Shown: positions 234 to 48,840 of the stretch, one piece after another
Layout of the letters: each line of letters begins with the position of its first letter
How positions within the stretch are numbered: the stretch's first letter is position 1
Assembly (NCBI GenBank): GCA_965213625.1
Contig: CBDBZU010000004.1
Coordinates: forward strand, 896,001-960,000
DNA length: 64,000 nucleotides
Direction: 5' to 3'
Origin: a bacterium
GTDB taxonomy: Bacteria > UBA8248
Notes under the pieces: generated by a model
Databases searched by the model: none
Told to the model about the DNA's origin: nothing
What the model saw: the letters and a program-made list of their open reading frames with translations, nothing else
Program-made: the position numbers and the translations under genes

Positions 234-234
234 T

Positions 235-3873: not shown

Positions 3874-3888
3874 ATATCGAGACAGTAT

Positions 3889-5241: not shown

Positions 5242-5246
5242 TTTTC

Positions 5247-6125: not shown

Positions 6126-6246
6126 TGGTTTCTCCTTGCGGGGACAATGATGATGACGATATCGTTATAGAAATCTAATCAAAGGTACCAAAGTGCTTTT
6201 GAAGCAACAATATCGAAAATGAAAAATTCATAAGTGGGACTCCAAG

Positions 6247-7452: not shown

Positions 7453-7464
7453 GATGAATGGCGA

Positions 7465-7893: not shown

Positions 7894-8611
7894 ACCGAGA
7901 AATTTGGAGAAAAGAAGAATCGTTTTAACCGGAGCCTCTAGGGGAATTGGCCGTGTGAGTGCGCTTCGCCTCGCAAAAGCAGGAGCAAGGGTTCTTGCCG
8001 TTTCGAGGGATGCCGAAGCCTTGGCGAAATTGGCCTTTGATTCCAAAGGGTACGTGGGCCAGATTTTTCCGCACAGTTGTGACGTGACGAAAGCCGATGA
8101 AGTGGAAGCGCTTAGCGAAATGGCAGAAAAAAGACTTGAGGGGGTGGATGCGCTGATAAACAATGCGGGTTCAGGTGTTTTCAAGGATATCGAAAACCTT
8201 TCGGTGGATGAATTTAACGCTACGGTCTCGGTGTGTCTCACCGCACCTTTCATGTTGACGCGGGCGCTATGCCACATGCTTGAGGCGGCGAATGGGGATG
8301 TCATTAATATATCTTCGATTAGTGCGGTGTCGGGCTTTCCGGGAGCGTCGGCTTATTGCGCCGCGAAAGCGGGACTTGAAGGACTCTCCAGGGCATTGGT
8401 CGAAGAATTGAGGCCCAAGGGGATACGTCTTACTATCCTCCGGCCTGGCGCCTGCGCAACGGATATGTGGAAATCTATTCCGGGGGAGTTCGATTTTGAG
8501 GCGATGATCCCCCCGGATCTGGTGGCGGAAGCCATAGAGTTTTTGCTCTCTCAATCCCGCAAGGCATGGACGGAATCGATGGTGGTTCTACCCCCGAAAG
8601 GTATGGTCTAG
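7880..8611 (+). CDS. SDR family oxidoreductase (candidate sepiapterin reductase-like)
   Basis: TGASRGIG, NNAG, YCAAK catalytic YxxxK; overlaps the 3' end of the PTPS gene. Confidence 0.85.
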   Translation: MAFGEPRNLEKRRIVLTGASRGIGRVSALRLAKAGARVLAVSRDAEALAKLAFDSKGYVGQIFPHSCDVTKADEVEALSEMAEKRLEGVDALINNAGSGVFKDIENLSVDEFNATVSVCLTAPFMLTRALCHMLEAANGDVINISSISAVSGFPGASAYCAAKAGLEGLSRALVEELRPKGIRLTILRPGACATDMWKSIPGEFDFEAMIPPDLVAEAIEFLLSQSRKAWTESMVVLPPKGMV

Positions 8612-8823
8612 CGTACCCTCATCACCCTGTGAATCTGTATATTTATGATCCCCGTCTGATTTTTTAAACCCCAATTGCGTGGAACGCGCTTGTTGAAGAG
8701 GACAAAAAAAGATATAGATTTGGCCTTTGATGGAAGGGGTTCTGCAGAATTCCGATGTATGTGAAGAACGTATATATAGCGATTTTGAAAGATTAGCACA
8801 TTATTTTGGGGGGAGGTGGATCG

Positions 8824-9123
8824 TTGAGTACTGTTCGATATGAAAATCTCGATGTCGAATATGAGACGGAGATTGGAGATTCCATTCTGGACGCGGATTT
8901 GGATAAAGGAGTCGATCATACCTGCGATTGCGGTGGAAACTGCGCCTGTTCGACTTGTAAGGTGGTCGTGATTTCTGGAGCCGAGTTTCTCTCTCCACAA
9001 CAGGAAGACGAAAAAGATACGCTGGATGCCTATGGATGGAATCCGGATGAATATCGTCTGGCTTGTCAATGCATCGTTGAGGGAGAGGGCCGGATTGTCT
9101 TGAATATGCCTGAGCCTGAATAA
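8824..9123 (+). CDS. 2Fe-2S ferredoxin (adrenodoxin-like)
   Basis: CGGNCACSTC...RLACQ. Confidence 0.9.
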   Translation: MSTVRYENLDVEYETEIGDSILDADLDKGVDHTCDCGGNCACSTCKVVVISGAEFLSPQQEDEKDTLDAYGWNPDEYRLACQCIVEGEGRIVLNMPEPE

Positions 9124-9141
9124 AATTCAGGGAGCGTGTTC

Positions 9142-9777
9142 TCAGGCCCTATTCCAAGCTTGAGCCACCGAATCGAAATCAACCATACCCTCGCGCAAGA
9201 GTTTCGGCTTCTCCCCACGTACGTCCACAACAGTGGAAGGCCGGGTATTTTCTGTTGTTCCGCCGTCCAAGACCAACGATACCTTGTCTTGGAATCGAGA
9301 AAAAATCGCCTGAGCGCTTTGGAGTGGTAGCTCGCCTGATGGATTCGCGCTCGTCGCAACGAACGGGCCGACCCGCATGGCCAGGATGCGGCAAAGTGCT
9401 TGAGCGGGCATGCGCACGGCGACAGACTCCCCATCTTCGGCGAGCAGCGGAGACAGATTGGGAGATGCCGGTAGAATCAAAGTCAGGCCCGAGGGCCATA
9501 GGGAATCCATCAGTCTTATCGCGTGTGGAGTGATGTCGCGGACGAGTCCATTTAACTGGGAGCGGCAGCCGATGAGAACTGGCGCGCCTTTCTCGTCTTT
9601 TCTTCCCTTTGTTTCGTAGAGTTTTTCGATGGCCTTTTTATCAAGCGCGTGGGCGCAAAGGCCATAGATCGTATCCGTGGGCAAAGCGACAATGTTTCCC
9701 GAATCCAGTTGTTCGCCGGCTTTTTGAATAACTTCTTCTTTTGGTGAATCAGGATTCACCGGGAGGATTCTGCTCAC
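9142..9777 (-). CDS. tsaC: L-threonylcarbamoyladenylate synthase (YrdC/Sua5)
   Basis: PTDTIYGL, KGR, TSANPSG, PSTVVD, LREG. Confidence 0.92.
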   Translation of the reverse strand: MSRILPVNPDSPKEEVIQKAGEQLDSGNIVALPTDTIYGLCAHALDKKAIEKLYETKGRKDEKGAPVLIGCRSQLNGLVRDITPHAIRLMDSLWPSGLTLILPASPNLSPLLAEDGESVAVRMPAQALCRILAMRVGPFVATSANPSGELPLQSAQAIFSRFQDKVSLVLDGGTTENTRPSTVVDVRGEKPKLLREGMVDFDSVAQAWNRA

Positions 9778-9780
9778 CGT

Positions 9781-10410
9781 CTATTTTTTCCGGTAAGTCC
9801 TTTTGGCGCGACTACGCTTGGGCCTTGATTTTTGGCCTGTACTTTTTTTGGTTTCATTTTGTGGTTGTTTCGCGCCGTCTTTTTGCGCTTGGGCGGGTGG
9901 AGGGGAGATTTCTTTCTGGAGTGCTGCGTCAGCGGCCAGAACCTTCTCGGTTTGTTGTTGCGCGAAACGTCGATATTCCTTCGCCAGTTTCTGATCGGTC
10001 AGGGCGAGTATACGGGCGGCGTGTAGGGCGGCGTTTCTGGCGCCGGGGCCGCCTATCCCCATCGTCGCAACGGGAATGCCGGGGGGCATCTGCACTGTCG
10101 AGAGAAGGGAATCGAGACCGCCGAGCGAAGAACTGTCGATGGGAACGCCTATCACGGGCAGGTCCGTAGCGGCTCCGACGACGCCCGCCAGGTGAGCAGA
10201 CATGCCTGCGCCCGCAATCAGCACCCGGATTCCGCGCTCGGGCGCATTTTTCACATATTCATGTACGGCGTCGGGTGTGCGGTGGGCCGATAAGACTCTC
10301 ATTTCAGAGGGAATGTTGAAGGTTTCGAGCGCCTTCGTGGCTTCTTCCATCACCGGTTTATCAGAAGCGCTTCCCATCAGTATCCCAACCAGGGGTGCTC
10401 TCGTGGCCAA
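9781..10410 (-). CDS. purE: N5-CAIR mutase with basic C-terminal tail
   Basis: ILMGSASD, SAHRTP, GAGMSAHLAG, PVIGVP, VQMPPGIPVAT. Confidence 0.95.
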   Translation of the reverse strand: MATRAPLVGILMGSASDKPVMEEATKALETFNIPSEMRVLSAHRTPDAVHEYVKNAPERGIRVLIAGAGMSAHLAGVVGAATDLPVIGVPIDSSSLGGLDSLLSTVQMPPGIPVATMGIGGPGARNAALHAARILALTDQKLAKEYRRFAQQQTEKVLAADAALQKEISPPPAQAQKDGAKQPQNETKKSTGQKSRPKRSRAKRTYRKK

Positions 10411-29914: not shown

Positions 29915-31322
29915 GAGGTCGTCCCTGCCCATCCAGGCGTTATCGGTCTGCTTTCTGGTCGCGCTAATTGGCTGCGGCCGCGCGAAGGTCCGCGGCGATG
30001 AAACCGTTAAAGCCAAAATCGCGCGTCAGACCACGTTTACGCCGCAAACCTGGGCGACGAGCGTGGACGAGTCCCGACTCCGAAGCGCGAGGCGGGTTGA
30101 CTGGCTGAAATCCTTTCAGGACGCCCGGCTGAGTGGTTTGGTCGCCCAGACCCTGGCAAACAACCGCGACCTCATGGCCGCGGCGGCGAACGTGGAGCGC
30201 GCCAGGGCGTTGGCCGTTCAAGCCGGCGCGCAACTGAAGCCCCAGGTGAATCTGGCCTTCGCCGGCTCGCGCTCCGGCGCACTCGAGAGCGCCGTGCCCG
30301 AGGTTTCGGACCACAAACTCTCGGTTCAGCTGAACTGGGAAGTCGACCTGTGGGGGCGCATCGGCGCGGGTCGGCGCGCGGCCGTCGCCAGCGCCGATGC
30401 CGCGGCCGCCGACTACAAATACGCGCAACACTCCCTGACAGCGGCGACGGCAAAAGCCTACTTCATCTCGATCGAGGTGGGGCGGCAAGCGGCCATATTG
30501 AAGGAAATCCTCGCGTCGCTCAAAGAAACCGTCCGCATCGTCAATGTGCAATACGAGAACGGACTCACCTCCGCTCAGGACGTCGCGTTGGCGAAATCCG
30601 ATTTGGCGTCCACCCGCGAACAATTGATCACGCTTGAGTCGTCTGAGAGAGAGGCGCTCCGCGCGCTGGAAGTGCTGTTGGGACGCTACCCCAAGGGCGA
30701 GCTCGCCGTGCGCGCGGCGTTGCCGCCTCTGCCGCCCATGCCGCCGCCGGGCGTGCCCTCCGACATCCTGGAGCGGCGGCCGGATCTGATCGCCGGCGAA
30801 CGCCGCGTCGCCGCCGCCTTCAACGCCCTGAAACAGGCGAAGGCCGCGCGCCTGCCGCAGTTGAGCCTGACCGGTAGCATCGGAGGAGTCTCTGGTTCCC
30901 TGTCGAACATCACCGATCCGGCCAACATCGCCTGGCGGATCGCTGGCAACCTGTTGGCCCCCATCTTCGACGGCGGCGCCGGAAAAGCGCAGGTGGAAAT
31001 CGCAACGGCGGAACAAAAGCAAGCCCTGGCGGCCTATGCCCAAACCGCGCTCAACGCATTCAGCGAAGTGGAAACCAATCTCGACCTCGCCAGCACGCTC
31101 GCCCGGCGCGAAGAGGCGCTCGGCGTCGCGCTCGGGGAGGCGGAAAAGGCGCACCGAATCGCCCGGCTCAGATACACCGAAGGCGAAATCGGCCTGATCG
31201 ACCTGTTGGCCATACAACAGCGCGTGCTCTCGGCGAAGAGCAATATGTTGTCCGTCCGGCGTCTCGCGCTCGAACAGCGCGTTAATCTCTTTCTCGCGCT
31301 GGGCGGGAACTGGGAAAGTTGA
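29904..31322 (+). CDS. RND outer membrane factor (NodT/OprM-like lipoprotein)
   Basis: LIGC lipobox, WEVDLWGR, PSDILERRPDL, LFLALGGNW. Confidence 0.93.
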   Translation: MRNKRSSLPIQALSVCFLVALIGCGRAKVRGDETVKAKIARQTTFTPQTWATSVDESRLRSARRVDWLKSFQDARLSGLVAQTLANNRDLMAAAANVERARALAVQAGAQLKPQVNLAFAGSRSGALESAVPEVSDHKLSVQLNWEVDLWGRIGAGRRAAVASADAAAADYKYAQHSLTAATAKAYFISIEVGRQAAILKEILASLKETVRIVNVQYENGLTSAQDVALAKSDLASTREQLITLESSEREALRALEVLLGRYPKGELAVRAALPPLPPMPPPGVPSDILERRPDLIAGERRVAAAFNALKQAKAARLPQLSLTGSIGGVSGSLSNITDPANIAWRIAGNLLAPIFDGGAGKAQVEIATAEQKQALAAYAQTALNAFSEVETNLDLASTLARREEALGVALGEAEKAHRIARLRYTEGEIGLIDLLAIQQRVLSAKSNMLSVRRLALEQRVNLFLALGGNWES

Positions 31323-31665: not shown

Positions 31666-32691
31666 ATGGAACAGGTCCACATCATCGGCATCGACTTGGC
31701 GAAACACGGATTTGGGCTCCACGGCGCGCGCGTAGACGGGTCGGTCGCGTTCCGCAAGAAGCTGACGCGGGGGAAGGTGTTGGGTTTTCTGGAATCGCAG
31801 CCTCAGTGCCGGGTTGCGATGGAGGCATGCGGGAGTGCGCACTATTGGGGCCGCGAGATCGGCGAACTCGGCCATGAGGTGAAGATCATGCCACCGCGAT
31901 ATGTGAAGGCGTTCGTCAAACGTCAGAAGAACGACGACGCGGACGCGGAGGCGATCTGCGAGGCGGCTTCGCGTCCGAGTATGCGCTTCGTGGCGGTGAA
32001 GAGCGAAGCACAGCAGGCCCAGGGCATGCTGTTCCGCACGCGCGATCTCCTGGTTCGCCAGCGTACGCAGACTGTCAATGCGTTGCGTGGTCACTTCGCG
32101 GAGTTCGGGATCATCGCTCCGCAGGGACTGGTGAATACCTCTCGCCTGGCGGCGGCTCTTGGAGACTCGGTTACGGAGCTGCCGGAGACGGTCCGCGAAC
32201 TGGGCGGGTTTCTGCTCGGGCAGATCGCCGACCTGAACAAGAGAGTCGGGGAACTGGAGAGCCGGATCCGCTCCGGCGCTTACGAGGACGAGGAGGCGAG
32301 GAGGCTGATGAGCATCCCGGGAATCGGGCCGATCTGCGCGTCGGCGATACTGGCCTTCGCGCCGCCGATGGAGAGCTTCCGGAGCGGGCGGGACTTCTCC
32401 GCCTGCCTCGGCCTCGTGCCCCGGCAGAACTCCACGGGCGGCAAAACACGGCTGGGCAGGATATCGAAGATGGGCCAGCGTGACATCAGGCGGCTGTTGA
32501 TCATGGGCGCGATGACGGTGGTGCGCTGGGCGGACCGGCGCGGTGCGCCGCCGGGTTCATGGCTCGCCCGGATGCTGGCGCGCAAGCCGAGGATGCTGGT
32601 CGCGGTAGCGCTGGCCAACAGGATGGCGCGCATCGCTTGGGCGCTGATGGCGAAAAGAGAATTCTACAGGGAGCCTGCGCCGGTCATCTGA
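31666..32691 (+). CDS. IS110 family transposase/recombinase
   Basis: GIDLAK, MEAC, KNDDADAEAI (DEDD), SIPGIG, LGLVPRQNSTGG. Confidence 0.96.
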   Translation: MEQVHIIGIDLAKHGFGLHGARVDGSVAFRKKLTRGKVLGFLESQPQCRVAMEACGSAHYWGREIGELGHEVKIMPPRYVKAFVKRQKNDDADAEAICEAASRPSMRFVAVKSEAQQAQGMLFRTRDLLVRQRTQTVNALRGHFAEFGIIAPQGLVNTSRLAAALGDSVTELPETVRELGGFLLGQIADLNKRVGELESRIRSGAYEDEEARRLMSIPGIGPICASAILAFAPPMESFRSGRDFSACLGLVPRQNSTGGKTRLGRISKMGQRDIRRLLIMGAMTVVRWADRRGAPPGSWLARMLARKPRMLVAVALANRMARIAWALMAKREFYREPAPVI

Positions 32692-33256: not shown

Positions 33257-34195
33257 ATGATGTCGATGCGCTGGATAAAGCTGGCGGTGCTGTTTGCGTT
33301 GGTCGCCCTAACCGCAGCTTCCAAAATATCGGGGGAGGAATCCGCTCCCAAGGCGATGCGGTCCCCGACGAGCGCACCGGCGGTTCCGCGCAATCAGGCG
33401 GCGACGATTGCCGTGAATTGCGCGGGCTGGAACACAGGAACCTTCTTCGAGAAGGCGAGCGTTGACCGAGTGCGTGAATGCCTGGGGGCCGGGGTGAATC
33501 CGAACGCGCGGGACAAGCGGGATAGGACCCCCCTGCATTGGGCGGCGTTCAATAATAAGAACCTCACCGTCATCAGCGCCCTGCTCAATGCCGGCGCCAA
33601 CCCCAAGGCGCGGGACAAGCGGGGCAATACCCCCCTGCACTTTGCGGCCAGGAACGAGAACTCCACCGTCATCACCGAATTGCTCAAAGCCGGCGTCAAC
33701 CCAAGTGCGCGGGACAAGGAGGGGTATACCCCCCTGCATGACGCCTTTCGGCGAGCAAAATCCGGCATTGTCGTCGTCCTGCTTGAAGCGGGCGCGGACC
33801 CGAACATCAAAAACAGCAACGGGGACAGGGCGGAAGACGTGGACAGGATGAACATCGCAGAGCACGCGAACGTCGCGCAGGCCCTGGCCAAGGCGGGTTC
33901 CAAAGGGCGGGCCTACGGATCGGAGAAGCAAAAAAGAAAAGAAGCGCAGGAACGAGCGCGCAGAAGAGCCGAACAGGCACGCGAGAGAGCCGAACGGGCG
34001 CGCAAAAGATCCGAACGGCGGGCAGCGAGGCGCATCGCGAGAATCCGGAAGGAGAACAGGCACGCGCGGGCGGAGTACAGGCGGTTTAATGAGGAACTCG
34101 GAAGACTAAGAGAAGAAGACCGGATTGAGCGGAAGCGGCAAAGAACCGTGACGAGACGACAGCAACACCAAAAAGAGGCCGGAATCCGCGAGTAG
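33257..34195 (+). CDS. Secreted ankyrin-repeat protein with Arg/Glu-rich coiled coil
   Basis: Signal peptide; repeats ARDK.G.TPLH.A...LL.AG.NP; frame stays open after TAG at 34193. Confidence 0.88.
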   Translation: MMSMRWIKLAVLFALVALTAASKISGEESAPKAMRSPTSAPAVPRNQAATIAVNCAGWNTGTFFEKASVDRVRECLGAGVNPNARDKRDRTPLHWAAFNNKNLTVISALLNAGANPKARDKRGNTPLHFAARNENSTVITELLKAGVNPSARDKEGYTPLHDAFRRAKSGIVVVLLEAGADPNIKNSNGDRAEDVDRMNIAEHANVAQALAKAGSKGRAYGSEKQKRKEAQERARRRAEQARERAERARKRSERRAARRIARIRKENRHARAEYRRFNEELGRLREEDRIERKRQRTVTRRQQHQKEAGIRE

Positions 34196-35291: not shown

Positions 35292-35361
35292 GCTAGCCAA
35301 GTCCGACAGGCTGTTAACCCGTAACCTTTTGTTTATTGTTATATATTGACAATATAATAGT

Positions 35362-36948
35362 TTGCAGCCGGCAATACACATCGATGGCGATATTCTGGTT
35401 TGCCGTTACCGTGTTGGCTCCTCGAGGAGGCGCGAGACAGTGCTGCGATTCGGATACCAAGTCGGGACCTATCGCTTCGGCAAACGGGTGCTGGGTCTCT
35501 ATTTCGCCCAGGCGGCTTTTGCGCTCGGATTTTGCGGCGCGGCCGAGCCCGCGAGCGCTTCGCTGGAACGGGAACTAACGTTGTCCGAATGCATCGTACT
35601 GGCCGTCCGGAACAATCGGGATCTCGCCGCCGGCCGTCTCGACAGGCTGGCGCAGAAGCTGTCCCTTCAGGATGCCGAGGATGAGTTCCGCCCGTCTCCC
35701 GCGCTTGGCCTGGCCCTGGAGCAGGACTCGACGGGGTCCGCACTCGTACGTGAGAATACCTCAACCATCAGGATCTCGCCCCGGGTAACGCTGCGCATCC
35801 CCACTGGGGGGAAATTCAACCTGAGCTCGGACAATAGGGTGTCGAGCGCGAACATCTCCAAACGCTACGCCCAGAGCGTGGTGATCGAGTTCGTCCAGCC
35901 GTTGCTGAGGGGCGGCGGAACCGAGGTCGGCTCCTCCGGGGTCGTGACGGCAAGGCGCGCGGAACAGAGCGGCGCCCTCGGCTTCAAATCGGCGGTCATC
36001 GGGATCGTCACCCGGGCGATCCTCGCCTACCGGAACGTCATTCGTTCGACACGCGCGGTAGAGATCGCCAGGCGCTCGGTACAGCGGGCCCGCAAACTGC
36101 TGGAGGTGAACCGGATCCTGATCCAGACCGGCAGGATGGCCAGGCAGGATATTGTACAGACCGAGGCGAACATCGCGGAGCGCGAGCTCGGCCTGACCGA
36201 AGCGGAGGGTGCGCTGAACGACGCCCGCCTGGCCCTGATCAATATCCTGGAATTCGACAGCCGGACCCGTATCCGGCTGACTGAGCCGTTGCGCATGGAG
36301 GAGACGAAGCACGAGGCCGACCGCGCCGTGCATCTGGCGTTGCAGAACCGTACCGACTATCTCCAGGCGCAGCTGAGCGTCGAGAACGCCGAGAACGCTC
36401 TCATGCTGGCCGACAACGCGCGCAAGTGGGGTCTGGACCTCTCCGTGTCGGCGAGGTTCGGACACAGCGGGAGTTCGTTTTCGGAGGCCTACCGCCGGTT
36501 CGACGACAACTACGGGGCGGGGCTCAGCGTGGACATCCCCGTGGGAGCAAACGCGGACGCCCGGCAGCGCAACTACGAGAGGGCTAGGCTCGCCCTGCGA
36601 CGGTCGCACTTGCGAGTCGCGGAGCTGCGCCAGTCGATCGAGGTCAAGGTGCGGGCCGCCCTGCACGATGTCAAGGTGTTGTTCCGGCGCGCGGAGCTCG
36701 CCCGGCGGGCCAGGGAGCTGACCGAGCGGAAACTCGAGATCGAGCAGGCCAAGCTGCAAGCCGGTTTGACAACGAACTTCCGCGTCGTCCGGTTCGAGGA
36801 CGATCTCGTCAGGAGCCAGAACAGTGAAGTCGGAGCCGTCATCGGGTATCTCAATGCTTTGACGGCGTTCGACCAGACGCTGGGGACGACGCTCGATACC
36901 TGGGGGATTGAGTTCGAGTCGTCGGTCGATGTGGGGGTGGGCAAATGA
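35362..36948 (+). CDS. TolC-family outer membrane channel (module A, intact)
   Basis: LTLSECIVLAV.NN.DL, QPLLRGGG, AL.NR.DY, GLTTNF.V; start uncertain. Confidence 0.88.
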   Translation: MQPAIHIDGDILVCRYRVGSSRRRETVLRFGYQVGTYRFGKRVLGLYFAQAAFALGFCGAAEPASASLERELTLSECIVLAVRNNRDLAAGRLDRLAQKLSLQDAEDEFRPSPALGLALEQDSTGSALVRENTSTIRISPRVTLRIPTGGKFNLSSDNRVSSANISKRYAQSVVIEFVQPLLRGGGTEVGSSGVVTARRAEQSGALGFKSAVIGIVTRAILAYRNVIRSTRAVEIARRSVQRARKLLEVNRILIQTGRMARQDIVQTEANIAERELGLTEAEGALNDARLALINILEFDSRTRIRLTEPLRMEETKHEADRAVHLALQNRTDYLQAQLSVENAENALMLADNARKWGLDLSVSARFGHSGSSFSEAYRRFDDNYGAGLSVDIPVGANADARQRNYERARLALRRSHLRVAELRQSIEVKVRAALHDVKVLFRRAELARRARELTERKLEIEQAKLQAGLTTNFRVVRFEDDLVRSQNSEVGAVIGYLNALTAFDQTLGTTLDTWGIEFESSVDVGVGK

Positions 36949-37600
36949 TGATCGAAGCATCCCCGCTCCCGGACGGGTCAGCGAGGGCGCGGTGCGGGAC
37001 TCGCTGCTTCAACGCAACGTGCTGATAAGCATGAACGACGGGGTCATGATCATTGATTCCGGCGGCCGCATCGGGATCGCCAACCTCGCAACTTCTCGTC
37101 TGCTCGTTCAGGCTTGCGCTGACGTCGAGTCTAAGGCGTTCACCGAGGTTTTCCTCCATCTCGGCGGGCTGGAGAAATTCAGCGATACCATGCTCGCGGC
37201 GGTCTACGACAGGGGGTTCGGGACCCGCTCCAAGGTTCGCGTGCGTCTCGGTGACGACACGGAGCGGTCTCTCGCCGTCACGACCTCCTACCTGGTCGAC
37301 CACGAGGACGGGGAAACCCGGAGAATCGGCAGCGGCGCCGTGTTCATCGACATCACCGAGATCAAGGCGCTGCGCAAGGCCGAGCAGGAGTTCGCAGCCT
37401 CGATGGGGGAACATAACGTCAGGCTCCGCGACGCCTATCGCTAGATTGAAGAAACGAACAAGGCCCTGATTTCGGTGCTTAAAAAGATGGCGGTGGTGCG
37501 GTGGGCCGCCATGGTTCTCGTCGTCGTCCTGATTGGGGGGCGCCGCATGGTACGTCTTGGACGAGACGGGGGCACGTTGTAGGCCGAAATTGCGACAGTG
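36945..37600 (+). pseudogene. PAS-TM-MFP fusion, module A paralog (truncated)
   Basis: MNDGVMIIDSGGRI..AN...RSLAVTTS...DITEIK.LR matches the N-terminus at 39649; TAG at 37442, TM helix, then homology lost. Confidence 0.8.
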
Positions 37601-38149
37601 TCGGCAGCGGCGCCGACGGATGCGGAAGATGTGCCGACCCAGGGTGAATGCCCCGGTTACTTTCGTGACTAAGCCGCCGCGTGGCGGAGGTCTCCGCTCC
37701 GTATTACTGCGACGGCTTTACGCCAACCCTTCCCGGCGAGCTTGCGCCGGATCATGGTCCGCCTGCATTCCATCCAACACTCCGCTTCATCTCCCTCCGC
37801 GCCTGTGTTCCCTTCCCGTCGCTCAGGACGGTCAGGTCCGTGTCCACAGTCGCTACACAATCGGTTGCCGGTCGATTGCCTAGCGCATGGCGATGCAATA
37901 CGCTCGGCAATCCAATTTTATGCGTCGGAATCGACAGGATCGTCCCCGCCACGAGCGCCGTCAGCGCATGATTTCGGCAATATCGTCGGCCGAGAGGTGG
38001 GGGAGGACCGCGACGGCCTTGCAATGCGTGGAGGGTTGGGTTGGAAGCGGGCCGGGCGGATCGAAAATCGGGCACGGTTTCCATCCGCGCCAGTCCCAGG
38101 CGAGGCTGGAGGGGAGCAACCAAATGGTCCGAAATTCTCGGAAAGCTCG

Positions 38150-38660
38150 CGGGAAATCGAAGAATTACTCCGCGATAAGCACGAGAACAAACTCGAAAGC
38201 ATCGTTAGCGACGGGCGCCTGGAGATGTCGGAGGCACTAGAACCAGCTTGAGGCGTGTGCCAGCCATTCATCCGGAAACGCCCGTAGAGGCGGAACGAAA
38301 CCGACCTCAGACAGGAACCTCGACGCACTCGCTTGGCGTAATCCGTTCTACCGTGTCTTTGTATGTGGCCACTGAAATGGACTTCGACGCTTCGTCGCTG
38401 TTGAATACCAGCTTGCCCGAGACTGAAGCGAAATCCATCCCTTGCGTGGCCGATCCGCCAGCCGTTTCGTAAGACCAGCGATAGGACCAGTCGCTCGGCG
38501 GGATGCCCGTTTCTAACTTGAACACTGCGTCATTGCCTTCGCATGCTTTCGCATCTGACGCCGACGCGGCCGGAGAGATCATCGCCCCGGCTGCCAGTGC
38601 GGCCGCAAATACAGAGCACTGAACGACCCGCGCGAAGCCCTTGTTCGAAGCAGTCTTCAT
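38150..38660 (-). pseudogene. Secreted Calx-beta domain protein, module A paralog (frameshifted near 38330)
   Basis: Signal peptide; YETAGGSATQGMDF..VSGKLVF...KSISV.T..D; similar to 44339-44857. Confidence 0.7.
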
Positions 38661-39099
38661 AATGGCGTCTCCTTTTCCTCTGAATGCGCCCCAGAAATCG
38701 GCCAGTATGCGTTATTGATAGAACAGAGACAAAACTACTTTGTTACAAAACCCCACTATCTCTACGATATCATGGTGTTAGTGGCAATATCAAACTTGCC
38801 CGCTCCCCGTGATTACAGGTCGAGTATTTCACACGGTATGGGTTGACATTGACAATATGGCCTCGCTAGAATTTCCCGATAAGCTCAGAGCGTCTTGCGG
38901 CGTGGCCACCGCGATTCTGCCAGACAGTTCTCGGTTGCCCCGCTGAAATGGGGTAGATTCCCGGAGGAGGGATGCCCACGAAAGGCTCTCGCTTGTCACC
39001 GTAGTCTCACAGAGGGTGCACGTGACCAACGGAATCGATGTTCGTCGCACGTGGACAAGGCCGGTTGGATCGTCCGGGTAATCGACGGCGGCAAGTCTC

Positions 39100-39652
39100 A
39101 GCCTGCCTTGGACTGCGTTCGGCTCATCGCCGGATCTGGCGAGGTGTTTGTGAGCCGTCGTCTCCGTTCTATGGGTCTGGGCGCTGGTTCCTGCGACCCC
39201 CCAGACGCCTACGACGGCGGACGATCTCCCTGGCTGCGCCGCCAATGTTTGCGACTTGACGCTTAAGGACGTGATCGGGCTGGTGCTGGCGCGCAACCGC
39301 CCGATCCTCAACAGCCGGCTCGACCGGGAGGTGCGACGATTTTCGCTGGACGTATCCGAGGACCGCTGGAGCCCCCGTGTCACCATCGGCCCATATGCTA
39401 GCAGGAACCGGCAGGACGACAAGGAGGGCTTCCGCACGTACACGAGCCTGCGCGTTCGCGCTCGGGTGGGACGAAAACCTGACGAAGAGGTCCGACGGCT
39501 CCAGTTCGCAGGCCTTCAACTTTTCCTAGCCCTTGCTGAAGGGCGCTTGGGCTCGTATCGACAGCGCAACGGTGCGCCAGGCGCAGTTCGACCGGATTTC
39601 CGGACAAGTGCTGGATCGCGGGGACATCCGGCTGGAGGCAGTTCTGCAATGA
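39100..39652 (+). pseudogene. TolC-family gene, module B, with large internal deletion
   Basis: LTLKDVIGLVLARNR..RLDR and LLKG..V joined directly to C-terminal FDRISGQVLDRGDI, matching both ends of the 35362 TolC. Confidence 0.75.
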
Positions 39653-41409
39653 CGGACCGTGGCCCTGACATTTACCGTACACTCCTGGAGAACCTGTCCG
39701 ACGGGGTGATGGTCATCGGTTTCGACGGGTCGGTCAGACTGGCGAATACCGCCTTCTGCCGGATGTTCGGTCTCGACCCCGCTGAAGCGGTCGGGGATTC
39801 CTTCGGGGAGCTCTTTGTCACGTTTGAGGGCTTCGACGAGTTTACCCAGTTCGTCCTCGACACCGTTGCCGAACGCGGTGAGATCGCGCGGCGCATCACG
39901 CGGGTTCGCGCCGGCGAGGAACTTCGGTCGCTGTCCGTCACGACCTCCTCCCTGACGGCGGAGGGAGAACGGCTGGCGGTGATAGTCGTGGTCTCCGACA
40001 TCACCGAAGTTCGGGAGTTGCGCGAGACCGAGTTGCGCCAAGCGGAGGTCATCGAGACACAGCTCAGCGAGCTCCAGGGCGCCTATCGCGACCTTGAGAC
40101 CCGGAACGAGGCGCTCTCGGCGATGACGAGGCGCGTCAACACGGCACGCAGCGCGGCGATGTTTTTTGTCATGGTACTGTTCCTCGCCATTGGCGCCTTG
40201 TATGTCCGGCCGCTGGATTTCTTCATCGCCACTGCTACGCGCGACGCCGGCACGGGCATCGAAGTCGGCGATCCCGGTGTGCTGCCGACTGTGACCGTTC
40301 AGCCCCGCGAATTCCAGTCCACCATCGCGCTCAAGGGCCATCTAGCGCCGGGCCGCGTCGCTGAGATCGTCAGCCCGATCGAAAGTCATGTGAGCGAGGT
40401 GCATGCCGCCCCCGGGGACCGGGTGGCAGCGGGCGATCCACTGGTCGATCTCGATACCGGTCAGCTCGACGCGGACCACCGGCGGGCCCAGGTCGAGCAT
40501 ATCAAGGCGCGTGATCGGCTTGTCAAGATCGAGGCCTGGGAGAAGAGCGCCGACATGGCGCGCGCCCGACGCGCCTTGCGGCGGGCGAAGATCGCGTTCG
40601 ACGACGCGGAGCGGCATCTCGGCGAGACCGCCTTCCTGCTGGAGCAAGGACTAGTCCCCGCTTCGCAGCACGAGAATGCGCAGCGGCAGCGGCAGAACCG
40701 GACCCTGGACCTTAAGGAGGCCCAGCGGGAACTGGAGGCGGTAAAGGCGAAGGGCGGCGACGAGGCGCGGCGGGTGGCGAGGCTGGAGGCCCAGACGGCC
40801 CAGGACCGCCTGCGCACGCATGAGGAGAAACTGGACCTGGCGCGGGTCTCGGCGCCGATCTCCGGGGTCGTCATAAAGGCGGATGGCCCTAGGGACAAGC
40901 CCCTGACGAAGGGACGCCTTGTGGGACAGGGAGAATTGATGCTGAGCATCGCGGATCAGGAGCGCCTCGCAGTGGTCACGAGCGTCAACGAGGTGGATGT
41001 GAGAAAGGTCGAGGCCGGCCAGCGGGCCTGGATCACCGGCCCCGGATTTCCCGGCCTGAGGGTCGTAGGCGCCGTGAGCCGCGTCTCGTCGCGCGCGGAC
41101 CGCAGGGGGCGTCGTCGCAACGTGCCGCAATTCGAGGTCGTCGTCACGCTCGACAGGTTGGAAGCGGAAGCCCGCCACCGACTGCGAGTCGGTATGTCGG
41201 CCTATGTCACGATCGTCGTCTACCACCGCCCGGCGGTCCTGATGGTCCCGATCGGCGCGGTAGGGCAGAGCGGCGGCGAAGCTTGGCTGCGCGTCCTCGC
41301 CGGCGGCGTTGCAGAGCGGCGCAAGGTCGAGCTCGGCCTCACCACGATCGATTCGGTCGAGGTGGTGAAGGGCCTCTCGCCCGGCGACAAGGTCGTCCTG
41401 GCCCGATGA
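39649..41409 (+). CDS. PAS domain-coiled coil-TM-MacA/HlyD-type periplasmic adaptor fusion
   Basis: N-terminal YRTLLENLSDGVMVIGFDGSVRLAN..F..MFG...SDITE (PAS); one TM; GDRVAAGDPL, SAPISGVV, EVDV..V..GQ, RVGMSA, GLSPGDKVV. Confidence 0.88.
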   Translation: MTDRGPDIYRTLLENLSDGVMVIGFDGSVRLANTAFCRMFGLDPAEAVGDSFGELFVTFEGFDEFTQFVLDTVAERGEIARRITRVRAGEELRSLSVTTSSLTAEGERLAVIVVVSDITEVRELRETELRQAEVIETQLSELQGAYRDLETRNEALSAMTRRVNTARSAAMFFVMVLFLAIGALYVRPLDFFIATATRDAGTGIEVGDPGVLPTVTVQPREFQSTIALKGHLAPGRVAEIVSPIESHVSEVHAAPGDRVAAGDPLVDLDTGQLDADHRRAQVEHIKARDRLVKIEAWEKSADMARARRALRRAKIAFDDAERHLGETAFLLEQGLVPASQHENAQRQRQNRTLDLKEAQRELEAVKAKGGDEARRVARLEAQTAQDRLRTHEEKLDLARVSAPISGVVIKADGPRDKPLTKGRLVGQGELMLSIADQERLAVVTSVNEVDVRKVEAGQRAWITGPGFPGLRVVGAVSRVSSRADRRGRRRNVPQFEVVVTLDRLEAEARHRLRVGMSAYVTIVVYHRPAVLMVPIGAVGQSGGEAWLRVLAGGVAERRKVELGLTTIDSVEVVKGLSPGDKVVLAR

Positions 41410-41434
41410 CCCGGAGCGACAGTTGGCGGGCGGG

Positions 41435-42175
41435 ATGCTGAAGCTGACCGATATCCGCAGGTCCTACCGGATCGGGCCGGTCACGACCGAGGTCCTGCGG
41501 GGCGTCGATCTGGAGGTCGAGGCGGGCGACCTGATGTCGATCATGGGGCCGTCGGGCAGCGGTAAGACGACACTCATGAACATTATCGGCCTGCTGGACC
41601 GCCCGAGCTCGGGTGGCTGCGTTCTCGACGGGCGCGACATATCCGGGCTCCGGGACGACGAACTCTCCGCTCTGCGGAGCCGGTATATCGGCTTTGTGTT
41701 CCAGTCCTTCCACCTACTGCCGCAACTGACTGCATTAAAGAATGTCTGCCTGCCGCTGGTCTATCGGGGCACCGGGCGGCCGGAGATGCGCCGCCGGGCT
41801 CTGGATATCCTGGAGCGTGTCGGCATGGCGGACCGGACCGGCCACCGGCCAGACCAACTTTCCGGCGGGCAGAAGCAGAGGGTCGCCATCGCCCGGGCGC
41901 TGGTGGGCGAGCCGGCCCTGCTGCTCGCCGACGAGCCGACCGGTGCGCTGGACACGGACACGGCCGACGAGGTGATGTCTCTGCTGCGGCGGCTGAATGA
42001 GGAGCGCGGCATCACGATCCTGATTATCACGCACGACCCGTCGGTCGCGGACCTGTGCGCGCGGCGGACGCGCATTCGCGACGGCAGGCTCTTCGAGCCG
42101 AAGGCTGGGCGCTCCGGGTCCGCCCTGCAACAATCCGGTCACGCCCCGGACGCCGCGGCGGCGTCCGGGGTGTAA
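41435..42175 (+). CDS. MacB/LolD-type ABC ATPase
   Basis: GPSGSGKTT, GFVFQSFHLL, LSGGQKQRVAIARAL, ADEPTGALD, ITHD. Confidence 0.95.
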   Translation: MLKLTDIRRSYRIGPVTTEVLRGVDLEVEAGDLMSIMGPSGSGKTTLMNIIGLLDRPSSGGCVLDGRDISGLRDDELSALRSRYIGFVFQSFHLLPQLTALKNVCLPLVYRGTGRPEMRRRALDILERVGMADRTGHRPDQLSGGQKQRVAIARALVGEPALLLADEPTGALDTDTADEVMSLLRRLNEERGITILIITHDPSVADLCARRTRIRDGRLFEPKAGRSGSALQQSGHAPDAAAASGV

Positions 42176-42190
42176 CGCGGGCGTCCGACG

Positions 42191-43390
42191 ATGTCGAGAA
42201 CGGTCCAAGTCCTTGCGAACAATGCCCGCGAGGCGGCCGACAGCCTGCGCCGGGCAAGGCTGCGCACGGTGCTGGGCCTGGTCGGCGTCATGATCGGCAT
42301 CTCCTCGGTCATTGCGATGGTCTCGCTGGGCGAGATCGCCAGGGAGCAGGCCCGCAAGCAATTCGAGGCGCTCGGAACCGACATCGTTGTCGTCCGCAAG
42401 TCGGCTGCCGCGGGAAGGGCCGCGATCGGCCTCCCGGACGCCCTGCAATTGGCGGCGGTGGTCCCGTCGATCGTCGAGGCGGCGCCCAGGATATCGGGAC
42501 GCGGGACGTTCCGCTACGCCGGCCGGGAGGTCGGGCGGGGCGCGGTCCAGGGCGTCACCCTGTCCTTCGCGAGCGTGAACAAGCTGACGCTGCGGGAGGG
42601 CCGGTTCGTTACGGACCTGGATACCGACAGATACTGGTGCGTCATCGGCGCCGAGGTCGCGGAGAAAATGCGCGCGGCGGGGGCGGATCGCCTCACGGGG
42701 ACGCTCATTGAGGTCGATGAGGTTCTCTTCACCGTCGTGGGCGTGCTGAACCGCAAGGAGAAAAGCTATGCGCTGCCGTTCCAGGTGAATGCAGACAAAT
42801 CGGTCTTCGTCCCGATAACCACAGCGCAGCGGGTCGTCTCCGACCCCGGAATCGAGGTCATCGTCGCCCGATCCGGCGGCGGCGTCCATTACGCGGCGGC
42901 GGTAGAGGATATCCGGTCGTATTTCCTCAAGCGCGCGCCCGATCTCGGCCTCAATATCGTCACCGCGAAGGAGTTGATTGCCCGGATGGAGGCGCAGATG
43001 GGCATTTTCACCTTGTTGCTGGGCGCGGTGGGCAGCATTTCGCTGATCGTCGGCGGGATCGGAATCATGAACATCATGCTCGTGTCCGTGGCCGAGCGGC
43101 GCGCGGAAATCGCCATCCGCCGGGCACTCGGCGCTCGGCGGCGGGACATAAGGAGCCAGTTCCTGATCGAATCCGTCATCCTGACAGTCGTCGGCGGCGT
43201 GCTCGGCGTGGCGCTCGGCCTGGCGGCAACCTGGACGATCTGCCGCTTCACCGGCTGGGACTTCCTGATCTCGGGGCTCTCCGTGGCCAGCGGCCTCGGC
43301 ACGGCGGTGGCGGTCGGCCTGTTCTTCGGGTTCCAGCCCGCCCACCATGCCTCGCGGCTCGATCCCATCGCCGGACTCCAGGGCAAGTAG
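42191..43390 (+). CDS. MacB/FtsX-type ABC permease
   Basis: RT.L..GV.IGI.SV, ISLIVGGIGIMNIMLVSV.ER..EI.IRRALGA, QFLIES, PA..A.RLDPI. Confidence 0.95.
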   Translation: MSRTVQVLANNAREAADSLRRARLRTVLGLVGVMIGISSVIAMVSLGEIAREQARKQFEALGTDIVVVRKSAAAGRAAIGLPDALQLAAVVPSIVEAAPRISGRGTFRYAGREVGRGAVQGVTLSFASVNKLTLREGRFVTDLDTDRYWCVIGAEVAEKMRAAGADRLTGTLIEVDEVLFTVVGVLNRKEKSYALPFQVNADKSVFVPITTAQRVVSDPGIEVIVARSGGGVHYAAAVEDIRSYFLKRAPDLGLNIVTAKELIARMEAQMGIFTLLLGAVGSISLIVGGIGIMNIMLVSVAERRAEIAIRRALGARRRDIRSQFLIESVILTVVGGVLGVALGLAATWTICRFTGWDFLISGLSVASGLGTAVAVGLFFGFQPAHHASRLDPIAGLQGK

Positions 43391-43429: not shown

Positions 43430-44248
43430 TCAGCAGGATGTCTTGAGTGTCCCATCGCAGTTCTTGAGGTTTTGCACCTGTCCCAGGTCCCCCTTGTACG
43501 AGGTTTCAACTGCGAGGATTCCCCCAGTCTTCCCCAATGGATCGTCAACCCGTCTTTCGCAATGGGTCTTTATGGAGCACTGTCCCGAATCCACTCCGAC
43601 TTGGGTGCTGTAGACGCCGGTATAGTTACAGGTGACTTTGGCCGAACTCGCATTCCATGCGCTCGTGCATTTCTCGACCGTTGGGCAAGAAGTGGACAAC
43701 TCGTTGTTGCAGAAATCGAGCTGTTTCACATTGCCGGGCGACCCGTAGAAGGACGCGGCCACCGCCAGGGTCCCGCAGGAGGTCGAGACATGACATTGCT
43801 GGCCTTGATAGGTCGACATGCTGTGGGACCCGTAGGACGAACCGCATCTCTGGCTGGCATCGCTGTCGTTCCACGACTCATTGCATGCTGTCTCCAGGGC
43901 GGTTTGTTGATCAGCGGAGAGGCAGGAGCCGATTTTGAGCTTGCCGTCGCAACTCACCAGATCGCGCATGTCATCCAGATCGCCGGTGACAGTTTGCTGG
44001 GTTGATGGCACGCCATTCAACTTCCGGCACCTGGCCGTGACGCTGCACTCTCCGTTCGGGGTGTCAAACCAGAATTGGGTGCCGGGAGCCGGGCAATGAT
44101 TGGAGGCGTCGCTTTCGTACCACGCTTGAGCACAGTCGCCATATGTGGGGGCATTCTGCGCGTAGACCCCCGGCGCGGCGAGGAGCCCGCCTGCAAGCAC
44201 CGACAGGACCAGCGCCAGCGTGGGGAGGATTCGGTATGAGGTTCTCAT
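43430..44248 (-). CDS. Secreted protein with three tandem six-cysteine repeats
   Basis: GGAGG RBS, Sec signal ending VYA-Q; three repeats C-x3-W-x2-S-x-A-x3-C...C-x5-C...L-x2-C-x3-L-x3/4-C. Confidence 0.85.
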   Translation of the reverse strand: MRTSYRILPTLALVLSVLAGGLLAAPGVYAQNAPTYGDCAQAWYESDASNHCPAPGTQFWFDTPNGECSVTARCRKLNGVPSTQQTVTGDLDDMRDLVSCDGKLKIGSCLSADQQTALETACNESWNDSDASQRCGSSYGSHSMSTYQGQQCHVSTSCGTLAVAASFYGSPGNVKQLDFCNNELSTSCPTVEKCTSAWNASSAKVTCNYTGVYSTQVGVDSGQCSIKTHCERRVDDPLGKTGGILAVETSYKGDLGQVQNLKNCDGTLKTSC

Positions 44249-44338
44249 GGCATTCACCTCCTTTGTTCTCCGCCATGGTCGGCGGGGGTTACGGGTTTGA
44301 AGCGGTATCGCCCGCGCTCATTGCACGGCCGCGCGGAC

Positions 44339-44857
44339 TCACTGGCAGTACTGACCCGCGTTCCCGCATCCCATCTTGACCGTTTGATCGTTGTCCTGGA
44401 TCTGGCCCTTCAACGTCATATTGCGCGGCATGGACCGGATGCTGGATGTCGGTGAAACCCACCCCGTGACACCGCGGTAGAGCCCGTTGACCTCCTGGTC
44501 GTAGAGCTTGAGCTTGAAGACTTCCGGGTCTTCTTCCTCGCTGTCGTCAATCGTGTCTACATAGACCTTCTGCTCCTTGACCCCCGAGTTGAAGGTCACG
44601 GTGCCGGTGGTCTCTTCGTAATCCTCGTCCTTCACGGCCGCGCCGTCTTGCGTCTTGTACTTGTAGCGCACCGCCCAGCCGTTCGGCGCGGCCCCGAGCT
44701 TGACCGTGAACTCCATCTTGTCGCCCTCGGTTGCGCCGGCGTCCGCGCCGTGCGCCGCCTGCGGCGCGCCAAGCGCGGCGCACACCGCCAGCATGACAGT
44801 TGCAACGGCCGCGAGCCATGCGGCCCGTACGGATTTTCTGTTCGAGTCCTGTTTCAT
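44339..44857 (-). CDS. Secreted single Calx-beta domain protein
   Basis: Signal peptide; EGD..F.V.L...V.Y.TQDGAA..EDY..TGTVTF....V.V.TIDD..EE..E.F.L.L. Confidence 0.88.
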   Translation of the reverse strand: MKQDSNRKSVRAAWLAAVATVMLAVCAALGAPQAAHGADAGATEGDKMEFTVKLGAAPNGWAVRYKYKTQDGAAVKDEDYEETTGTVTFNSGVKEQKVYVDTIDDSEEEDPEVFKLKLYDQEVNGLYRGVTGWVSPTSSIRSMPRNMTLKGQIQDNDQTVKMGCGNAGQYCQ

Positions 44858-47155: not shown

Positions 47156-47983
47156 ATGATACATGATCAACGAAAAACATTGTCATCCTATACTTCCGGT
47201 TTGCTGTCAGAGGGCCGTGTAGTCTTCTCGGCAGATGAGGCGGAGCAGGCGCTGGGAATCGGACGAGGGGCGTTTCTGGACGCCGCCGAACGGCTCCAGC
47301 GCCGCAGGCATCTTATCAGGCTGCGGAATGGGTTCTATGTCGTGGTTCCGCCCCGGTACGCATCCTGGGGCGCTCCGCCTCCGGATTGGTATATCGATGA
47401 CCTGATGCGGCACGAAGGGCGACCGTATTATGTAGGTCTTCTCAAGGCGGCCGAACTGCACGGCGCTACCCATCAGGCCGTTATGGAGTTTCCCGTTGTC
47501 ACGAACAAACGGCTGCCCGGTATCCACGCTGGCAGAACCCGGATCGTTTTTCATTACCGAAAAGACATGAAAGCCGTATCGGACGGCGTGGAAAACCGGA
47601 AGACCGATACGGACGCGATGAGCGTGTCGTCCGCCGAACTCACGGCACTGGACCTTGTGCGCTATTCACATGCCGCCGGAGGCATCGACAACCTCGTCAC
47701 CGTCCTTGCCGATCTCGGCCCGAAACTCGGTTCGCAGGAACTGGCGCGGCTTTCATCCGCGGCGGAGCGCTCGATCGTTCAACGTCTCGGCTATCTGCTG
47801 GACCGTCTCGGGCACGGGGACCGAACCGGACCGCTGTACGACGCGCTGTCCGGCCGCGGCGCGTTTCCGTGGGTCGAACTCGACCGCAAGGAAACCCGCG
47901 ACCCAGAATTCACGTCACCCCCGCTGGAACGTGACGAACACTGGCGCGTCATTGTCCGTCGCCCGCCTGAGGTCGACGAATGA
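47156..47983 (+). CDS. Type IV TA antitoxin, AbiEi family
   Basis: GFYVVVP, YYVGLLKAAELHGATHQA, TALDL, QRLGYLL; overlaps the toxin start (ATGA). Confidence 0.88.
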   Translation: MIHDQRKTLSSYTSGLLSEGRVVFSADEAEQALGIGRGAFLDAAERLQRRRHLIRLRNGFYVVVPPRYASWGAPPPDWYIDDLMRHEGRPYYVGLLKAAELHGATHQAVMEFPVVTNKRLPGIHAGRTRIVFHYRKDMKAVSDGVENRKTDTDAMSVSSAELTALDLVRYSHAAGGIDNLVTVLADLGPKLGSQELARLSSAAERSIVQRLGYLLDRLGHGDRTGPLYDALSGRGAFPWVELDRKETRDPEFTSPPLERDEHWRVIVRRPPEVDE

Positions 47984-48840
47984 TCCCCCGGATGAACATC
48001 ATCGCATGGGGGAATGTCGTCCCCTGGGCGGACCTGCGCCAGGTCGAACAGGATCTCATCATCAGCCGCGCGCTCGTCGAACTGTTTTCCCATCCCGGAC
48101 AGGCCGGACAACTGCGCTTTCGCGGCGGAACGGCGCTTAACAAGCTCCATTTTCCTCAACCCCTTCGCTATTCGGAGGACATCGACCTCGTCAGGACCGA
48201 GACCGGACCGATCGGCCCGGTTCTCGATGCCGTCCGGGAAACTCTCGAGCCATGGCTGGGGCGGGCGGGTTACGACCAGAGCGCCACGGCTCCCAAACTC
48301 CGTTTCCGGGTCGACGCGGAAGACCCCTCCGTCGGTGCCCCGATTCGCCTGAAAATCGAAATCAATACACGGGAAACCAAAGCGTTCGACCCGCCGGCCT
48401 CCGTTCCGTTCGCAGTGGAAAACCCCTGGTTCAGCGGGGCGGCGGACATACCGACGTTCTCGACTGAGGAAATCCTTGCGACGAAACTCCGGGCGCTCCT
48501 TCAGAGAAACAAGGGGCGCGACCTGTTCGATCTCTATCATGGGTTGCGCACGTTCGAGGAATTGAACAGGGCGCGTGTCGTGAAAGGTCTCGTGTTCTAT
48601 CTTGAAGAATCGGGATTGCGCATTTCCCGCGCCGAGGCGCAGCAGCGAATGTTCCCGAAACTCGCGAATCCCGCTTTCCTTACGGACATGCGGCCCCTGG
48701 TTTCGGCCGAGCACGCCGAGACCCTGGACGAAGACTCCACGAAGGAAGCGTTCAGACGGGTCTTGCGAGAACTGATCGACCTCATCCCGGGTGATGACTG
48801 GGCACGGACCCCGGACATGATCGAGCGTTTCGCGATTTGA
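47980..48840 (+). CDS. Type IV TA toxin, AbiEii nucleotidyltransferase
   Basis: QVEQDL, FRGGTAL, RYSEDIDL, KIEIN, TKLRALLQR.KGRDLFD. Confidence 0.92.
   Translation: MIPRMNIIAWGNVVPWADLRQVEQDLIISRALVELFSHPGQAGQLRFRGGTALNKLHFPQPLRYSEDIDLVRTETGPIGPVLDAVRETLEPWLGRAGYDQSATAPKLRFRVDAEDPSVGAPIRLKIEINTRETKAFDPPASVPFAVENPWFSGAADIPTFSTEEILATKLRALLQRNKGRDLFDLYHGLRTFEELNRARVVKGLVFYLEESGLRISRAEAQQRMFPKLANPAFLTDMRPLVSAEHAETLDEDSTKEAFRRVLRELIDLIPGDDWARTPDMIERFAI

Follow-up and report, generated by a model that had tools for sequence, protein, structure and literature searches.

Most known control of tripartite efflux pumps acts on transcription, with small accessory proteins taking part in a few cases. The adaptor MacA of the Escherichia coli pump MacAB-TolC has only a short cytoplasmic tail. 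For adaptors of ATP-binding cassette (ABC) transporters, major facilitator superfamily (MFS) transporters and type I secretion systems (T1SS), the portion of a 2021 review covered here states that they "have sizable cytoplasmic domains", which are indispensable both for recognizing substrates and for assembly, and about whose structure very little is known (PMC8277102). PAS or GAF domains are not mentioned in that portion. As far as the part considered here goes, a 2015 comparative genomics study described proteins combining GAF, HlyD and biotin_lipoyl domains in SecA_DEAD / peptidase_M50 loci, called their function unclear and suggested a regulatory or sensory role (PMC4452313). Here we analyse a stretch of 64,000 nucleotides from a bacterium of the GTDB lineage UBA8248 (assembly GCA_965213625.1, contig CBDBZU010000004.1, positions 896,001 to 960,000), referred to as the window, in which the forward-strand gene at 39649-41409 encodes a PAS domain joined to a MacA-like periplasmic adaptor (P0001). 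Judged by its sequence, P0001 is a member of a widespread clade of sensor-adaptors in which the short tail of the MacA type is replaced by a predicted small-molecule-sensor domain. We think it fairly probable that this cytoplasmic sensor gates export post-translationally via a coiled coil and the transmembrane helix.

P0001 is encoded by an intact, single open frame and comprises 586 amino acids. Its N-terminus carries a PAS domain (residues 9-123, 39673-40017) that is assigned from profile scores and a fold model: PAS_4 scores 52.6 bits over residues 13-123 (cut-off 23.1) and TIGR00229 58.9 bits (cut-off 22.9), and the Pfam profiles PAS, PAS_8 and PAS_9 match as well. From the DITE motif onwards follows a signalling-helix or coiled-coil linker (residues 119-165, 40003-40143) with heptad-spaced leucines at positions 135, 142, 149, 156 and 163. 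The lone hydrophobic segment (residues ~166-188, 40144-40212) reaches its Kyte-Doolittle maximum of 2.39 at residue 168 and is flanked on its N-terminal side by RRVNTAR with three arginines; this arginine-rich flank indicates an N-in orientation, so that the PAS domain would be cytoplasmic and the adaptor periplasmic. A tether of variable length and high entropy (residues 189-225, 40213-40323) leads to the MacA-like adaptor body (residues 226-586, 40324-41406), which consists of a long alpha-hairpin, lipoyl, beta-barrel and membrane-proximal domains. The C-terminal 360 residues score 117 bits with TIGR01730 RND_mfp (cut-off 94.9), and HlyD_3 (53.9, cut-off 22.2) and HlyD_D23 (48.6, cut-off 30) exceed their thresholds too.

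The AlphaFold2 model of P0001, built from 121 relatives, has a mean predicted local distance difference test (pLDDT) score of 90.3. It shows a PAS fold (residues 6-117), an unbroken helix of 66 residues that unites linker and transmembrane segment (119-184), a disordered tether (186-209, pLDDT < 50) and then the four-domain adaptor with its long hairpin, whose body (210-586) has pLDDT values of 88-98 per block of 10 residues with one block at 82. In Foldseek searches, the adaptor part matched best the MacA chains of MacAB-TolC (9qgy_G, E 2.7e-25; 5nik_D, E 6.8e-23), followed by AcrA, MexA and EmrA, and matches spanned E-values from 1e-25 to 1e-16. The equivalog and subfamily cut-offs were not reached by P0001: it scores 68.1 bits against the 342 of the MacA equivalog NF008606, 52.6 against the 208.65 of the type I secretion HlyD profile TIGR01843, and 62.8 against the 129 of the DevB profile TIGR02971. 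On these scores, P0001 is MacA-like by predicted fold and by its partners, yet it is neither a MacA orthologue nor a type I HlyD nor a DevB protein. The first-pass annotation of this locus had described a PAS-like domain, a coiled coil, a transmembrane helix and a complete adaptor in one open reading frame. Profiles, hydropathy and the structural model agree with this description, the PAS motif it quoted is indeed present in the translation of 39649-41409, and the domain-profile and topology check that it proposed returns an N-terminal PAS domain and a single transmembrane helix with the N-terminus inside.

The architecture is old and is found well beyond this gene. Homologs align over 99-100% of P0001 down to 56% identity, and in a word-indexed search 119 of the 120 homologs listed cover at least 95% of it; 117 of these 120 combine PAS accessions with PF259xx/PF26002 accessions, which we take to be adaptor domains. 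A chance fusion or a gene-call artefact was considered as the origin of the combined frame and is ruled out by the continuity of this frame and its conservation in homologs. Public annotation of the homologs reads only 'PAS domain S-box protein' or 'HlyD family/efflux RND adaptor'. A phmmer search with P0001 against 1.84 billion representatives returned 34,452 matches at E ≤ 1e-3 and 400 at E ≤ 1e-30. Among the 150 best representatives of clusters at 50% identity, HlyD_3 was present in 147, PAS (PF00989) in 106, GAF (GAF_2) in 21 and cNMP_binding in one. In homologs whose match to P0001 starts within the linker, which were checked individually, a GAF domain replaces the PAS domain, and mixed arrangements also occur (PAS-GAF in P0204, GAF-PAS in P0254 and P0218). 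One further homolog, P0221, has a cyclic-nucleotide-binding (cNMP) domain that scores 79.5 bits. Another predicted protein (P0139, 1064 amino acids) comprises both a PAS-adaptor and a permease with the MacB periplasmic core, either as a true fusion or as a merged gene call. A metagenome scan yielded three full-length relatives and one GAF form, the remaining 76 loci being plain adaptors.

The gene neighborhood is equally consistent. We compared 20 loci, nine of them close (L001-L009) and eleven with adaptors at 30-60% identity. TolC, sensor-adaptor, ATPase and MacB permease occur together in all 20, in most of them in the order TolC-adaptor-ATPase-permease, and the GAF-adaptor of L025 and the cNMP-adaptor of L111 adjoin TolC, ATPase and MacB permease just as the PAS forms do. 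Separate genes for PAS domain and adaptor were found in none of the 20 loci, although no search was aimed at split forms. Two of the close loci, L006 and L007 (G054:C10:328796-330544 and 340647-342395), are whole-operon copies that lie 11.85 kb apart with identical scores and look like a recent tandem duplication. The presence of three unrelated classes of ligand-binding input domain at the same position of the same pump is the strongest argument, a comparative one, for the proposed sensory function.

Linker spacing points in the same direction. Among PAS-coupled kinases, linker lengths are conserved modulo seven. In an alignment of 121 full-length members of the family, the distance from D117, the aspartate of the DITE motif, to G182, a conserved glycine of the transmembrane helix, is 66 residues in 80 proteins, 59 in 31 and 52 in two, so that 113 of 121 lie on a heptad series, and neither the PAS core (96-115 residues) nor the periplasmic tether (41-66 residues) follows any length pattern. 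A FastTree phylogeny of the adaptor part alone requires at least eight changes between 66 and 59, whereas shuffled labels require 27 on average and never fewer than 21. A linker that keeps its phase is what would be expected of a signal-transmitting coiled coil, and a purely structural strut could look alike. Mean column entropies in the same alignment are 2.21 bits for the PAS domain, 2.19 for the linker, 2.19 for the adaptor and 3.07 for the tether; the PAS domain is thus as conserved as the adaptor. Ratios of non-synonymous to synonymous substitution rates (dN/dS) against six close relatives are 0.19-0.28 for the PAS domain, 0.16-0.29 for linker and transmembrane helix and 0.24-0.35 for the adaptor part. 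Because of the exchange of PAS for GAF or cNMP domains, the heptad steps of the linker, the conservation of the PAS domain and its dN/dS of 0.19-0.28, we assign a probable sensory role to the N-terminal domain.

The chemistry of the presumed input can be narrowed to some extent. LOV domains are defined by a cysteine motif that forms the flavin adduct, and the heme-binding PAS domains of FixL and DosP by a heme-ligating histidine. Residues 1-125 of P0001 contain neither histidine nor tryptophan, its Cys37 varies among relatives, and in none of the PAS columns does His, Cys or Trp reach 30% across the 121 sequences, which makes heme-histidine chemistry of the FixL type, LOV chemistry and similar known chemistries unlikely. 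The N-terminal 140 residues modelled separately (pLDDT 86) form a five-stranded sheet with flanking helices, for which Foldseek retrieved short LOV proteins, YF1, NifL, FixL, PYP and DosP with template modelling scores of 0.6-0.7 and 16-24% identity; matches this generic do not allow a PAS subtype to be assigned. A sequence search of the N-terminal 168 residues against solved structures gave one weak match, 3bwl (E 7e-5). The earlier suggestion that a cytoplasmic ligand or redox input controls the pump holds in part: sensor exchange, the heptad linker, conservation and dN/dS speak for the sensory role, and the redox or heme variant is disfavored.

The same observations bear on a different explanation, according to which the PAS domain has a permanent structural role, stabilizing the complex by dimerizing neighboring adaptor protomers or by docking on the ATPase, and senses nothing. 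PAS domains often serve as dimerization modules; the lack of conserved cofactor-type residues, the generic nature of the nearest folds and the fixed phase of the coiled coil, which would be selected in a pure strut too, all suit such a role. As to docking, modelling residues 1-165 (PAS domain plus linker) together with residues 1-232 of the ABC ATPase gave a score of 0.01 (mark 0.32), which speaks neither for nor against contact. In sister pumps, however, the same position is filled by GAF or cNMP-binding domains, the latter being dedicated ligand receptors, and we regard a purely structural module as unlikely.

We return to gating from the inside and outline how it might work. In this view P0001 serves as the periplasmic adaptor in a tripartite ABC exporter of the MacB type, alongside an outer-membrane factor, a MacB-like permease and an ATPase that is a protein of its own. 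Whether the cytoplasmic sensor has bound its ligand or not would determine the conformation of a parallel coiled coil, which continues into the transmembrane helix and could act on the periplasmic adaptor (ring), on the permease-ATPase or on both. In this way an intracellular signal might start or stop export at the post-translational level. A transmembrane helix can transmit either way, and T1SS adaptors are reported to couple substrate recognition to the recruitment of TolC, so that the adaptor might conversely act as an outside-in receptor that senses the occupancy of the pump or its substrate, the PAS domain relaying this to a cytoplasmic partner without an enzymatic output of its own. Yet P0001 has no fused output domain, no cytoplasmic partner gene is conserved in the 20 loci, and PAS, GAF and cNMP domains usually serve as inputs, all of which renders signaling in this direction very improbable.

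Downstream of P0001, on the same strand, follow an ABC ATPase of the MacB/LolD-like nucleotide-binding type (41423-42175, ABC_tran 116.8 bits), whose real start is probably the ATG at 41435 and which is 82-91% identical to the syntenic genes in L001-L009, and a MacB-type permease (42191-43390) with MacB_PCD (113 bits) and FtsX (75.6 bits) domains. The two have the features of a MacB-type ABC transporter, namely an FtsX-type permease with the MacB periplasmic core domain and an ABC ATPase, but score 259.9 and 171.9 bits with the equivalog of fused MacB (NF007826, threshold 966) because they are separate genes. The cognate TolC, here called TolC_B, is a pseudogene on the forward strand at approximately 39022-39652, with stops, a frameshift and an internal deletion of ~286 amino acids. 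Compared to the TolC of L001, ~residues 57-257 are kept, interrupted by the in-frame stops and the frameshift, residues 258-543 are lost and the last 22 residues are kept; at the DNA level, 874 bp are deleted (L001 6060-6934). The last codons of the remnant overlap the start codon of the adaptor (ATGA). Of the operon with TolC, ABC ATPase and MacB permease that had been reported for this locus, ATPase and permease hold up and the TolC does not.

The intact TolC located 2.7 kb upstream of P0001 (TolC_A, 35362-36948, forward strand, OEP 111 bits) belongs to the genus's own paralogous operon A. With the TolC of G005, a genome of the same genus, it shares 91% identity, but only 35-42% with TolCs beside B-type adaptors. 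It is followed on the same strand by the stump of the native PAS-adaptor (36929-37639), which contains an in-frame TAG at 37442-37444, is 35% identical to the start of P0001 and shows 92% nucleotide identity to G005 until homology is lost at 37639, around codon 210. G005 has an intact PAS-adaptor after TolC (L020, G005:C1:1722000-1741000) that is 79% identical to the fragment 36929-37639; in its operon A, ATPase and permease are convergent to TolC and adaptor. The first-pass annotation had noted that the other TolC, too, is followed by a PAS-coil-TM start (at 36945) and had taken this as proof of a conserved architecture. That frame opens at 36929 and is a gene stump; the conclusion itself is upheld by the homologs in other genomes and by synteny.

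The window thus holds side by side the stump of operon A, consisting of TolC_A and ~210 adaptor codons, and a B segment of ~6 kb (38.9-44.9 kb) with ~84% DNA identity to the loci L001, L005 and L009. The genomes of these three loci are not among the 51 genomes compared for the window's phylum, and other adaptors of the P0001 kind within this phylum are only 37-42% identical. From the sequences compared, we infer that the B segment was acquired from outside the host lineage. An assembly error was considered as the cause of the pseudogenes. Contigs from three further public runs, representing at most two more samples of one study, cover 35300-39241, 35300-39711 (as two overlapping contigs) and 35300-40602 with one differing letter and no gaps. 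Since the lesions recur in contigs of further runs, they are not errors of a single assembly, and this explanation was discarded.

With its cognate TolC_B dead, the pump would have to rely on a different outer-membrane factor, such as TolC_A. A further gene for an outer-membrane efflux protein lies at 30063-31322 (forward strand, 419 amino acids, OEP 158.6 bits) and is a possible alternative exit duct; it is shorter than TolC_A, and since its match begins at profile position 3, in the first OEP repeat, its N-terminus may be cut. The condition of the neighborhood raises the question whether the locus, regardless of the family elsewhere, is what is left of an acquired island that is decaying and no longer functions. 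Besides the TolC_B pseudogene and the reduction of native operon A to TolC_A and a stump, a second copy of the island tail in this genome keeps only the last 60 permease codons, and an IS110-family transposase and an AbiE pair are found nearby. On the other hand, the frames of adaptor, ATPase and permease are intact and of full length, and dN/dS against the six relatives is 0.24-0.32 overall. The TolC_B remnant is more diverged from the L001 locus (77% nucleotide identity) than the intact genes (84.6%), so that relaxation looks confined to TolC_B, and TolC_A as well as the outer-membrane efflux protein at 30063-31322 remain. We judge a dead remnant to be improbable, somewhat more so than a purely structural PAS domain.

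Several points nevertheless weigh against sensor-gated export. The PAS domain, in which cofactor-type residues are not conserved, could be free of ligand. Eight of the 121 linkers depart from the heptad series, with lengths of 51, 55, 62 (four times), 63 and 65. The count of changes between 66 and 59 comes from a quick tree whose branches were not assessed, and the actual events could be fewer. The family is rare and patchy: among 50 other genomes from the phylum of the window it occurs in three, all of its own genus, and in five of 401 genomes from the class of genome G051, for which three candidates per genome were scored. Since neither TolC_B nor the native operon A is alive any longer, the system in this particular genome may be decaying. 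Finally, sensor-less relatives exist at 32-41% identity (e.g. P0226 and P0228), which indicates that this type of pump works without a sensor; by the same token they show that a strut would be dispensable for the pump, which counts against a structural module.

The genes beside the pump suggest candidate cargo. On the reverse strand, a gene at 43430-44257 encodes a secreted protein of 275 amino acids with a signal peptide and 18 cysteines in three repeats of ~80 amino acids, without a Pfam family; the ESM Atlas gave a weak cyanovirin-N-like lead whose score of 0.84 is under the trust level of the tool. Paralogs of this protein adjoin the pump in six of the nine close loci and weakly in L021, with one to three per locus. 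Also on the reverse strand, a small secreted Calx-beta protein of 172 amino acids (44339-44857, 47.9 bits) is another candidate and is syntenic in eight of the nine close loci and in L112 and L114. A third gene on this strand (38307-38660) encodes a small secreted Calx-beta protein of 117 amino acids (36.3 bits) that is 69% identical to the product of the gene upstream of TolC in L003. Taken together, Calx-beta or cysteine-rich relatives flank the pump in eight of the nine close loci, the contig of the ninth stopping at the permease, and in three of the eleven distant ones (L021, L112 and L114). MacAB-TolC has been linked to enterotoxin II (STII) in the literature and is reported to pick up this cargo from the periplasm. 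By analogy, the pump might export the neighboring Sec-exported Calx-beta and cysteine-rich proteins after collecting them in the periplasm, a possibility that we regard as rather doubtful.

A second, partial island tail is found at G000:C4:22000-28100 (L115) and again at G000:C4:4118000-4124200. It contains 18-Cys proteins with 95% and 60% identity and a Calx-beta protein with 92% identity to those of the window, and its permease codons are 98% identical. The two positions lie near both ends of a 4.13-Mb contig at a constant offset; either the ends of an assembled circle overlap here, or the repeat may be genuine.

Some further features of the window lie outside the pump genes. The IS110/IS116-family transposase (31666-32691, forward strand; Transposase_20 84.7 bits, DEDD_Tnp_IS110 55.6 bits) is located just upstream of the rearranged region. 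It is followed on the same strand by a gene for an ankyrin-repeat protein (33257-34195) with a signal-peptide-like N-terminus and a long C-terminal tail rich in Arg, Glu and Lys. The AbiEi antitoxin and the AbiEii nucleotidyltransferase toxin (47156-48840, forward strand; 100.4 and 133.5 bits) lie within a stretch of low G+C content, 0.50-0.55 at 44-50 kb compared to 0.60-0.68 around it. Positions 1-10000 of the window have a G+C content of 0.485-0.51 and a strongly positive GC skew, and the rest of the window has 0.57-0.69.

If the adaptor itself is the sensor, efflux or secretion across two membranes would be subject to a direct post-translational layer of control. Tentatively, and with less confidence than in the gating as such, we suggest that the adaptor is the output of a one-component system: a metabolite or second messenger, cyclic AMP or cyclic GMP in the cNMP forms, might directly open or assemble the MacB-type channel across the envelope by way of a phase-locked coiled coil and so release Sec-exported Calx-beta and cysteine-rich proteins on demand, without transcription. 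The cNMP-binding members offer a predictable ligand, and the heptad-quantized linker predicts the effect of insertions of one, three and seven residues. The broken native operon next to an apparently foreign paralogue without its own exit duct is a natural test case for the swapping of outer-membrane factors. The family also bears on a gap named in the covered portion of the 2021 review, namely how the cytoplasmic domains of adaptors working with ABC and MFS transporters are built (PMC8277102).

In the literature searched, which did not extend to subscription journals and supplements, no characterized fusion of a PAS, GAF or cNMP domain to an adaptor was found, in keeping with the earlier statement that no such system had been described, apart from the GAF-HlyD fusions of unclear function noted in the part of the 2015 study considered here (PMC4452313). 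The parts and the pump are known, and it is the sensor-bearing adaptor as a conserved modular class that appears undescribed. As described in that part of the study, the fusions share with P0001 a cytoplasmic sensor-type domain attached to a HlyD-family adaptor, but their neighborhood is one of secondary SecA and M50 peptidase and no operon with a MacB permease is described. E. coli MacAB-TolC (PDB 5NIK, 9QGY) resembles the present system in its membrane-anchored adaptor with a long hairpin, its MacB-type permease with a periplasmic core and its duct of the TolC family; in P0001, by contrast, a PAS domain and a cytoplasmic helix of 47 residues precede the transmembrane helix, and ATPase and permease are encoded by separate genes. 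HlyD-type T1SS adaptors likewise have an N-terminal cytoplasmic part before a single transmembrane helix, but their cytoplasmic regions are not recognizable sensors, and the transporter next to P0001 is of the MacB rather than the HlyB type. With PAS-coiled-coil sensors such as FixL, YF1 and other LOV kinases and short LOV proteins (folds 5luv, 4gcz and 8js5), P0001 shares a PAS domain that ends in DIT(E) and runs into a coiled coil; unlike these, it has neither the LOV cysteine motif nor the heme histidine, and its output is a transmembrane helix with a periplasmic adaptor rather than a kinase or cyclase. An analogy may finally be drawn to LapD, which uses a degenerate GGDEF-EAL module with a HAMP domain where P0001 has PAS and a single helix, and which targets a protease rather than a pump, but in which a cytoplasmic ligand-binding module likewise controls a periplasmic domain across the membrane.

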